Assembly (NCBI GenBank): GCA_047972845.1
Contig: JBKEBB010000092.1
Span: 1-34,772, forward strand
Length of the DNA stretch: 34,772 nt
Source of the DNA: Bacteroidales bacterium
GTDB taxonomy: Bacteria > Bacteroidota > Bacteroidia > Bacteroidales > JBKEBB01
Reading direction: 5' to 3'
Positions 14,477 through 16,095 of this stretch are shown piece after piece. A program made the position numbers and the translations under genes. Within the stretch, counting starts at the first letter, position 1, and every line of letters begins with the position of its first letter. The notes below the pieces were generated by a model, which worked only from the letters and a program-made list of their open reading frames with translations, had not been told where the DNA came from and made no database searches.

Positions 14477-15340
14477 ATGGATCAGTTTCGGATCGATCAA
14501 ACCGCTCTTGTCCTTGAAGGGGGCGGTATGCGTGGGGCATTTACAGCCGGTGTTCTCGATCTTTTTATGGATAAGGGTCTCCTTTTCCCCTACTCGATAG
14601 GAGTATCCGGAGGCACAAACAACGGCCTCTCCTATTTTTCGCGACAGCGAGGACGTTCATACTACGCTCACGTCACCTTGATGAAGGAACAACCCTATAT
14701 CGGAATCCGTCCATGGCTGAAGAAAAAGATGGTCATCGACCTGGATCTGCTCTATGAAGAGTTGGTTCACACCCTCTATCCCTACGACTTTGCCGCGGCA
14801 TTTTCCAACCCCGGTCGCTTTGAGGTGGTTGCCACACATTGCATCACCGGAGAGGCTCATTAAGTGGAAGAGCGTGCCGACCCGAAACGGTTGCTCACAA
14901 TCGGCCGCGCCTCTTGCAGCCTACCCATCCTCTCGCCCGAAGTATGGGTGGATGGACAACCTATGACCGATGGAGGACTTGCCGACTCCATTCCCCTAAA
15001 AAGGGCATTCGGGCAAGGATTCTCAAAGGCCGTAGTTGTATTGACTCAAAACGAAGGATTTCGTAAACCACCTTCTAAATTCAAAGTCCCCTCATTCATC
15101 CTCCCCCGCTATCCGAAAGTTCGAGAAATGCTCTACAATCGCCCCGCTCGCTACAATGAGCAATTGGAGTGGGTGGAACAGATGGAGCGCGAAGGAGCGG
15201 TGGATATCATTCGCCCCCTCAAACCTCTTGAGGTGGGTCGATTGACCACCGACTATCGACGACTACAACGGCTCTACGATGAGGGGTACGAAAACGCCCT
15301 GACATGGTATAACAGATACCATCCGGTAAAAGGGGAGTAA
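14477..15340 (+). pseudogene. Patatin-like phospholipase (DUF6363-type C-terminus) interrupted by one in-frame TAA at 14861-14863
   Basis: ORFs 14477..14863 and 14864..15340 are in the same frame; GGGMRG and GVSGG nucleophile elbow precede the stop, the DGG motif follows it; may be a true nonsense allele or a sequencing error. Confidence 0.8.
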
Positions 15341-15505
15341 GGTACGTGAAGCAAGCCGCAGGTCTTTCCGATGATTACCCACACAATGATTCTTCCATGG
15401 GAAAATTCGATCATCAGTGCGCAACCTGACACAAAAGAGAAACACACCTGTAACTTGAATCGATCCAAGCGGTTCGGTTGTCCCGATCGAGCCTTCGGAT
15501 TGCAG

Positions 15506-15593
15506 TCCCGCTGTACACCATAGCCAATTCCGCTGTACACGGCACGTAAGCAGGGTGTACACCGCGATGCACTACCCTGTACACCGAAGTAAG
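15506..15593. repeat. Array of four TGTACAC cores with exact 22-bp period (array 2)
   Basis: TGTACAC starts at 15512, 15534, 15556 and 15578; shares GGTGTACACCGCGAT and CCCTGTACACCG with array 1. Confidence 0.85.
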
Positions 15594-15657
15594 AATACGA
15601 ATAGTAGGATACTATAATATGAATGCTCATTCGAGTTAAACATTCTAAATTGATCGA

Positions 15658-15900
15658 TCATTCGGTTTCGTTCTCTCCGCGGACAGACTTCTGCATGTAT
15701 TCCCACTGATTCGCGCGCACGCGATACATTATTTCAAACAGCATCTCCTGTACCGCGATGATGTAATCATACACCGAGCCCGAACGAAGATATTTCACTT
15801 GAATACAGTGCGGAGCGAAGACACCATATTGTATATGAAAGCCACAGAGAGTATCGCTAAACCAACATCTCCATAGTATGATGGAATGGTTGTCTTTCAT
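15658..15900 (-). CDS. Small hypothetical protein (80 aa), uncertain
   Basis: ATG-start ORF filling an otherwise empty gap, divergent from GH92; no recognisable motif. Confidence 0.25.
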   Translation of the reverse strand: MKDNHSIILWRCWFSDTLCGFHIQYGVFAPHCIQVKYLRSGSVYDYIIAVQEMLFEIMYRVRANQWEYMQKSVRGENETE

Positions 15901-16095
15901 ATTCAGTCATTATAAAATCATCCAAATAAGACATCAAAGTTGACAAAAAAACGGAAGATACAGAGCCATTCAATCAACTTCAGATGAAAAGGATTGTAGT
16001 CCGATTCATTTTATTTATTGGTTAAATGTTTGTTTCTTTGCTGACTGGAAAATTCTTAATTTTCAAAACAACACTATTTTTAATCACTTATACAC

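Follow-up and report, generated by a model that had tools for sequence, protein, structure and literature searches.

Two arrays of a 22-bp unit in the window

The DNA analysed here, hereafter the window, comprises 34,772 nucleotides and is contig C13 in the assembly of a Bacteroidales bacterium that we label G000 (2.99 Mb in 392 contigs, 94.4% complete). It carries two arrays in which TGTACAC recurs four times on the + strand with an exact 22-bp period, array 1 at 868, 890, 912 and 934, and array 2 at 15512, 15534, 15556 and 15578. Array 1 has a uracil-DNA-glycosylase-family gene and a BamB-like gene as neighbours and starts 154 bp after the stop codon of the ORF at 135-710. The neighbours of array 2 are a split patatin-like gene and a GH92 mannosidase gene, followed by SusC/SusD, and the array starts 168 bp after the stop codon of the ORF at 14864-15340. 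A preliminary description made from the letters of the window had given the cores, copy number and period of array 2, their equality with array 1 and a distance of about 170 bp from a + strand stop codon, and the exact positions bear this out; the linker strings that it reported as common to both arrays, GGTGTACACCGCGAT and CCCTGTACACCG, are indeed present in both. Its remark that the arrays share an orientation has little meaning, since TGTACA and the unit consensus are palindromic, and the C at the seventh position is merely the commoner arm (121 of 173 units).

The core of array 2 consists of four 22-bp units, which we call type 1, at 15508-15595, with palindrome-like 14-bp sites centred on TGTACA at 15508-15521, 15530-15543, 15552-15565 and 15574-15587. 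The core of array 1 is built likewise from four type-1 units at 864-951, with palindromes at 864-877, 886-899, 908-921 and 930-943. The window holds 15 matches to TGTACAC on both strands, against a mean of 2.58 and a maximum of 6 in 100 dinucleotide-preserving shuffles. Neither array was reported by Tandem Repeats Finder, because the units are too dissimilar outside the motif columns.

Two further features lie close to the arrays. At 14477-15340, two abutting ORFs of 128 and 158 aa both match Patatin, the first covering profile positions 1-118 and the second positions 148-190 followed by DUF6363; a frameshift or an assembly error seems to have split a single patatin-like gene here. The gap from array 1 to the 3' end of the BamB-like gene contains, at 1062-1105, a GC-rich hairpin (AAAAAAGGCTGCTC...GAACAGCCTTT) that follows an A-run and precedes a T-run and is probably a bidirectional terminator.

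A dispersed family with phased flanks

Across the G000 genome, pairs of TGTACA occur 106 times at a distance of 22 bp, 56 times at 44 bp and 11 times at 66 bp, and only 0-2 times at each other spacing up to 120 bp. Chaining these cores gave 60 loci, of which 32 have three units, 20 four, 7 two and 1 five. The preliminary description had proposed a dispersed repeat family and a profile search as its check, and the 60 intergenic loci far exceed the two copies from which it started. None lies inside a convincing gene, and 4 overlap only short ORFs of about 105-120 aa. From the 173 units with a perfect core, the type-1 consensus is the 14-16 bp palindrome yGCGGTGTACACCGCr followed by a spacer near AATCGATT, and dyad centres therefore fall every 11 bp within the unit; position 15 is a purine in 171 of the 173. 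The 22-bp period also emerged from a core-blind scan for any three phased palindromes at periods of 14-33 bp, which found 33-43 loci at 22 bp in G000 compared to 0-1 in shuffled sequence, and 0-3 at the other periods except 33 bp. At 33 bp, which is 1.5 times the main period, there was a small secondary signal (3-11 loci vs 0-1 shuffled).

The periodicity extends beyond the TGTACA cores. We pooled the 118 flanks of the type-1 cores, reading each outward from the core; the resulting consensus, AA W n s G A nnnn T C s n T T, repeats every 22 bp and continues for four further units per side in the register of the core. The corresponding type-2 unit is an 18-bp quasi-palindrome, AAAAsG...CsTTTT, plus 4 bp, again with a 22-bp period, and scoring each locus with a type-2 matrix gave positive values for slots 1-4 outward and negative values for slots 5-6. 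The type-1 element is thus composed of about 4 + 3-4 + 4 units, or some 12 sites over roughly 264 bp. This phased element around the core, together with the second and commoner unit type, had escaped the preliminary description.

At array 2, the right flank consists of four in-register type-2-like units at 15594-15681, scoring 9, 11, 4 and 4 bits, and the next two slots drop to -10 and -6. The left flank, four slots in register with the core at 15414-15501, scores 11 and 10 bits in its inner slots (15458-15501) and 2 and -6 further outward. The whole element would thus span about 15414-15681, the right flank and the two inner left units being its clear parts. The flanks of array 1 are weaker by the same matrix, with five in-register type-2-like units on the left at 748-857 (7, 4, 6, 5 and 5 bits outward) and two on the right at 950-993 (5 bits each), beyond which the slots score 2 bits or less.

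Type-2 units also form arrays of their own. Three-unit type-2 scores above 18 bits were found at 745 positions in G000 and at 1 in a shuffled genome; the 745 fall into 172 clusters, 111 of them away from type-1 arrays (for example C328:21854-21989, C19:5496-5627 and C333:10208-10339), and 85 of these 111 have exactly four units. In some, units i and i+2 form perfect inverted repeats of 21 bp, and the family as a whole has an excess of inverted repeats (z 4.5 for i/i+2 and 5.5 for i/i+3). A separate observation concerns TCAGGACGGGAC and its reverse complement GTCCCGTCCTGA, found directly beside type-2 arrays and often about 100-250 bp from contig starts (C258:110, C260:107, C65:254, C231:20135, C351:8050); this motif may be a further repeat that breaks the assembly.

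Conservation is confined to the motif columns

Among the type-1 elements, conservation is restricted to the motif columns. Mean pairwise identity over the whole element is 0.438, against 0.435 in column-shuffled controls, and the best pair reaches 0.61, which gives no indication that copies were recently duplicated or transposed. An overall identity at the null combined with sharp motif columns needs selection, in agreement with the selection on core and spacing that had been suggested from the two arrays of the window. The half-sites come in two flavours, GCGG... and CCCC/GCCC..., which are freely combined. No position-specific arm types were found along the type-1 arrays, and, compared either directly or as reverse complements, units from within one array are no closer to one another than those from separate arrays. 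Nor do the arms covary as in a hairpin: over the 173 units, Watson-Crick pairs number 99 at arm positions 3/12 (97.8 expected) and 87 at positions 4/11 (91.2 expected). Sharp motif columns without maintenance of a hairpin are the signature of double-stranded sites read by a symmetric protein.

Genomic setting

Type-1 arrays occupy 45 of the 1767 ORF-to-ORF gaps in G000 (about 3%). The flanking genes are co-directional at 25 of these loci, divergent at 16 and convergent at 4, compared to 1383, 200 and 184 gaps overall; with divergent gaps enriched over convergent ones, type-1 arrays therefore favour promoter-bearing gaps. Putative -7 boxes (TAnnTTTG) lie 111-514 bp beyond the core edge, only 2 of 55 being closer than 88 bp, and show no phase preference modulo 22. 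With distances this variable, the geometry is not that of a classical operator at most loci.

The neighbouring genes share no theme. The largest BLAST cluster among the 107 array-flanking proteins has 4 members, and no recurrent family was seen among them. The 71 genes with their 5' end toward an array are of mixed function, including dnaX, ftsA, ssb, thrS, purL, purD, prs, leuA and ribF as well as glycoside hydrolases, peptidases, transporters, an ECF sigma factor and a Cas12a fragment. These unrelated flanking and array-facing genes rule out a regulon of related genes. The Cas12a (Cpf1) fragment, at C312:1115-2884, covers REC1/REC2 and is cut off by the contig end; a type-1 array lies 378 bp upstream of it.

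Two RNA runs were available as assembled contigs and are uninformative either way with respect to array 2: in the 15217-15850 bin the contigs listed include only one from X16, at 15827-16046, which stops short of the array, and the depths in that bin are 0.7 and 0.09.

Distribution across strains and lineages

Metagenomes from groundwater, bioreactors, sludge and aquatic sites contain the DNA of the window (20 rows of holders; 24 matches listed, from 11 study codes). The nearest strains, 96-98% identical, hold both arrays, array 2 being spanned by contigs from two other studies, and in a strain of about 96% identity from another metagenome array 1 is shorter by exactly 22 bp, that is, by one unit. 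No close relative without the arrays was found. A metagenome search with the GH92 protein beside array 2 gave a best homologue of 72% identity, and the 80 GH92 loci (572 kb) from metagenomes contained no 22-bp phased palindromes.

G000 is the sole member of its family among the genomes compared, and the pattern is absent from the members of 30 other families of the order. Searching relatives, as the preliminary description had advised, gave a divided answer: both arrays are held by contigs of related strains, whereas in the order only 8 of 401 sampled genomes have three-unit TGTACA matches. G000 has 49 of these and the other seven genomes 1-4 each, mostly plain tandem repeats; the reversed pattern ACATGT gave 0 in the same 401 genomes.

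In a scan of one genome per species, the matches listed place three-unit TGTACA arrays in many other Bacteroidota, with 11-174 three-unit matches per genome in these other lineages and with palindromic arms that are each lineage's own, among them AAGATGTACATCTT, AAGGTGTACACCTT, AAGTTGTACAACTT, CTTyTGTACArAAG and TTTCTGTACAGAAA. That the TGTACA core is common to them holds partly by construction, because the scan pattern required it. Three-unit matches number 174 in a MAG of Ca. Colivivens caballi and 125 in Bacteroides luti DSM 26991. The TGTACA family of B. luti has four units and no phased flanks, with a spacer, AATnnATT, that resembles that of G000. We also observed many near-identical three-unit arrays in uncultured Porphyromonas MAGs (L009, L023, L046 and others), where GTGTACAC alternates with GTATAC every 11 bp; the high likeness of these copies, unlike the G000 family, is as expected of a young or mobile repeat.

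Phased palindromes upstream of HU-HIG genes

G000 has one gene for an HU-HIG protein (PF18291, C71:11029-11427) and four classical HU/IHF genes. A four-unit type-1 array lies 139 bp upstream of the HU-HIG gene and none lies upstream of the four classical genes. For a single HU-HIG gene to stand beside a single array in G000 is an event of roughly 3% chance, and a PDB sequence search with the protein returned only HU proteins (E about 1e-4 to 1e-2).

The association recurs in other genomes. In B. luti, the closest homologues (39-40% identity) each have a TGTACA triplet with 22-bp steps, located 40-90 bp ahead of the start codon. Ten homologues of the G000 protein come from three Bacteroidaceae MAGs, six with TGTACA at 22-bp steps from -89 (four full triplets at or near -89/-67/-45, and two with two cores and a decayed third). 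Of the remaining four, one has a fully decayed array, and the other three belong to a sister clade and show palindromes of the GGTCGCGACC type instead, at about 22 bp. A tree of 48 HU-HIG proteins places the G000 protein in a group (98/84) with nine from Bacteroidaceae; TGTACA recurs at 22-bp steps upstream in eight of these nine, as full triplets in six and, in five of the six, at -89/-67/-45. The sister of this clade is a TCGCGA clade (100/99), in which each of the four proteins has a GGTCGCGACC-type array. Over the whole tree the array type requires 13 changes, against 23.2 with shuffled labels, a clustering that near-copies inflate.

A threshold of at least 14 of 18 palindrome pairs at 22 or 23 bp is reached by 6 of the 18 windows upstream of HU-HIG genes in B. 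luti and Ca. Colivivens, compared to 1 of 403 and 1 of 2351 controls, and by 6 of 28 HU-HIG genes in five further array-bearing genomes. In B. luti the palindrome varies by paralogue (TGTACA, TGCGCA, CCCGGG or TCGCGA), and this cultured strain, DSM 26991, has at least three dispersed families of phased palindromes that each also occur directly upstream of an HU-HIG paralogue: CTTyTGTACArAAG four times at 22 bp, AACATGTACATG three times at 22 bp, and yACCCGGGTr at 23 bp (examples at C21:217759, C27:160765 and C28:338518 of its genome, G404). The CCCGGG type, searched as ACCCGGGT at 23 bp, has 15 matches at about nine loci, two of which are HU-HIG genes. G412, G413 and G415 each have an HU-HIG gene with their own dispersed TGTACA-type palindrome in front of it.

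In all, phased palindromes precede HU-HIG genes in G000, B. luti, G408-410, G412, G413, G414 and G415, and were not seen in G405 or G411. The preliminary description had proposed looking for co-occurrence with a family of DNA-binding proteins, and this was found in part: the genes stand behind phased palindromes in several genomes, although not in those two, and with a single-protein query no orthologue of the G000 protein was found in 7 of 10 other TGTACA-array genomes, neither in the two Porphyromonas MAGs nor in any of the five genomes G411-G415. A TGTACA array was likewise found upstream of 0 of 6 PF18291 hits (HU-HIG or HU-like) in Ca. Colivivens and 0 of 7 HU-HIG genes in G411. The recurrent association of HU-HIG genes with phased palindromes is, at the level of sequence, established by these cases, and makes the HU-HIG protein the leading candidate as reader of the TGTACA arrays, an assignment that we hold tentatively and at less than even odds. 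One HU-HIG protein leaves the commoner type-2 units unexplained, and these are without a candidate reader.

A proposed role for the arrays

The type-1 arrays have dyad-symmetric sites spaced by whole helical turns, with conservation limited to columns of the kind that a protein would contact, as is seen in docking arrays. We propose, with a probability of roughly 0.5, that they are phased platforms on which a dimeric DNA-binding protein docks. Array 2 is one copy of a lineage-specific, dispersed, non-coding element with 2-5, usually 3-4, dyad sites of 14-16 bp centred on TGTACA and placed 22 bp, or two helical turns, apart, flanked on each side by about four weaker palindromic sites in register, giving about 12 sites over about 264 bp. 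One protein dimer would occupy each site, and the 22-bp phasing would place all dimers on a single face of the helix, where they could contact each other and form a fixed nucleoprotein block between genes. Such a block would be architectural or insulating in nature, marking the gap instead of switching individual genes. Of the candidates for reading TGTACA, the single HU-HIG protein of G000 (C71:11029-11427) is the best; it might limit its own synthesis via the array that precedes its gene. A point against this candidate is that a classical HU/IHF dimer, in bending DNA, takes up more than 22 bp of it.

One could also speculate, more tentatively still, that Bacteroidales HU-HIG proteins in general are sequence-specific architectural proteins, each paralogue having its own palindrome (TGTACA, TCGCGA, CCCGGG or TGCGCA) and scattered arrays phased at 22 or 23 bp that include its own gene, and that proteins and palindromes co-diversify by lineage; in G000, arrays and weaker flanks would then form positioned nucleoprotein particles of about 264 bp that mark intergenic gaps.

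The arrays might instead be a selfish repeat in the manner of REP/BIME or MITE elements, that is, tolerated intergenic remnants of a mobile or recombination-spread element with no host function. Such a repeat could explain why copies abound in one lineage and are patchily distributed elsewhere (49 matches against 1-4, in 8 of 401 genomes), why other lineages have their own arm sequences and, among the matches listed, 11-174 three-unit matches, why unit number varies between strains, and why the elements, which are mosaics of two kinds of palindromic unit, lie strictly between genes. The link to HU-HIG genes would then reflect the targeting of invasive DNA, which the passages of Burroughs et al. 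2017 (PMC5499826) drawn on here propose that these proteins deal with, or array and gene would travel together as RAYT genes do with REPs. What makes us consider this account unlikely is that the copies stand at the column-shuffled null (0.438 vs 0.435) and yet have sharp motif columns, that no Y1/RAYT transposase was found in the 94%-complete G000, and that the consensus has no GTAG or CGTC tag and the copies no terminal sequence in common.

It is also conceivable, and to our mind decidedly unlikely, that the arrays dock another protein, such as a nucleoid protein or a dimer of the Xre, GntR/HutC or ribbon-helix-helix type, and that the HU-HIG gene is a mere target. All evidence for protein docking applies equally to such a reader, and GTnTAnAC is presumably similar to the GntR/HutC consensus; the type-2 units require a reader as well, and the orthologue of the G000 HU-HIG protein was missing from 7 of 10 array genomes under the single-protein query. 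Against this, phased palindromes recur before HU-HIG genes in several unrelated genomes and their type tracks the protein clade, which would be unexpected of a mere target gene.

Hairpins or cruciforms in single-stranded RNA or DNA, ending or stabilising transcripts or absorbing supercoils as proposed for REPs, are an improbable explanation of the family, despite arrays that fold far below dinucleotide shuffles (median z -3.8 for type 1, with 85% below -2, and -4.9 for type 2), since type-1 units have no compensatory pattern within or between units, type-1 arrays lie in divergent more than in convergent gaps (16 vs 4), and an exact 22-bp register over 12 units is not needed for folding. Array 2 itself folds at -24.4 kcal/mol, against -23.9 for shuffled sequence (z -0.14), and with Rfam at gathering thresholds, as with ARAGORN, there was no match anywhere in the window. 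A hairpin role is more plausible for type 2 than for type 1, given the inverted repeats in some type-2 arrays, perfect over 21 bp between units i and i+2, and the preference of type-2-only arrays for convergent gaps (19 of 184) over divergent ones (12 of 200).

Should the docking platform be the correct reading, about 170 intergenic regions of a 3-Mb genome would bear precisely phased protein-docking sites of a kind that we did not find described. HU-HIG proteins, which are among the largest unexplained expansions of DNA-binding proteins in the Bacteroidales, including major gut bacteria, would gain a testable function and DNA targets, and B. luti DSM 26991, which is cultured and has three array families that each also precede an HU-HIG gene, would make this directly testable. 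The arrays probably also break short-read assemblies, several being located at contig ends, and they generate spurious small ORFs.

Relation to known elements

Of the three options that the preliminary description had offered, a protein-binding array fits best, REP/BIME serves as an analogy only, and a MITE origin is unsupported. Its view that the element is uncharacterised agrees with the literature, where a search of main texts returned no description of 22-bp phased palindrome arrays in Bacteroidetes; an occurrence of TGTACA in a P. gingivalis paper proved to be a primer.

The nearest named analogy is REP/BIME of Enterobacteria and Pseudomonas, which like the arrays here are high-copy, extragenic and lineage-specific mosaics of more than one palindromic unit type with the capacity for single-strand folding. 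IHF and gyrase bind to some BIMEs, and the RAYT gene flanked by its cognate REPs is perhaps mirrored in the HU-HIG gene with its array. The G000 elements differ in their exact 22-bp register over about 12 units, in their fixed unit number, and in the preference of type-1 arrays for promoter-bearing gaps over gene ends. REPs are defined, in the passages of PMC3733652 drawn on here, as imperfect palindromes of 20-40 bp with an unpaired GTAG or CGTC tag and an association with RAYT. High-copy and extragenic the G000 family is, but the arms do not covary, the column frequencies of the 173 type-1 units contain no GTAG/CGTC tag, and PF01797, the Y1 (RAYT) transposase, has 0 matches in the 94.4%-complete G000, whereas the control was positive in 6 of 14 known genomes; we therefore do not place the family among REP/BIME.

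Membership among MITEs was rejected on the lack of terminal inverted repeats of common sequence and on the identity at the null (0.438 vs 0.435). A described case within the order is BrickBuilt of P. gingivalis (Klein et al. 2015, PMC4596501). According to the portions of that paper considered here, it is a MITE that has promoter activity and consists of 23-nt units in 1 to 22.8 copies per locus between a leader and a tail with small inverted ends. In the same portions it resembles the arrays here in being a Bacteroidales element of head-to-tail units of about 22-23 nt, always intergenic, in tens of copies and 49-591 nt from the neighbouring genes. The period of 22 bp instead of 23 and the 2-5 units instead of 1-22.8 set the G000 family apart, as do its palindromic units, the phased weaker palindromic flanks and the fact that nothing is common to the copies outside the motif columns.

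The HU-HIG clade of the HU/IHF superfamily is described in PMC5499826, as far as its passages drawn on here go, as Bacteroidetes-specific, expanded and fast-evolving, encoded by standalone genes and of unknown function. Those passages hold HU-HIG proteins unlikely to be sequence-specific transcription factors; they predict no sequence-specific role and describe no cognate DNA sites, and the link to palindromes is one that we infer here. Direct repeats spaced by about 21 bp are predicted in PMC3878776, in its parts considered here, for hybrid two-component regulators of Bacteroides; these predicted sites resemble the arrays in spacing, while the arrays are dispersed beside unrelated genes.

Plasmid and phage iterons can be set aside, as the units here are palindromic and stand at 60 chromosomal loci beside housekeeping genes, not at one or a few near a rep gene or origin. 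Comparable in principle are cooperative operator and centromere arrays, such as the lambdoid OR/OL triplets, the ARG boxes of ArgR, the met boxes of MetJ and the ParR-parC centromeres. In these, as in the type-1 arrays, dyad or repeated sites are spaced by whole helical turns on one face of the DNA, and the operator arrays share with them a number of 3-4 sites and possibly an autoregulatory copy at the gene of the binder. Such operators serve one or a few operons at a fixed promoter distance, whereas the elements in G000 occupy 60 loci, with another 111 of type 2 only, beside unrelated genes and at variable distances.
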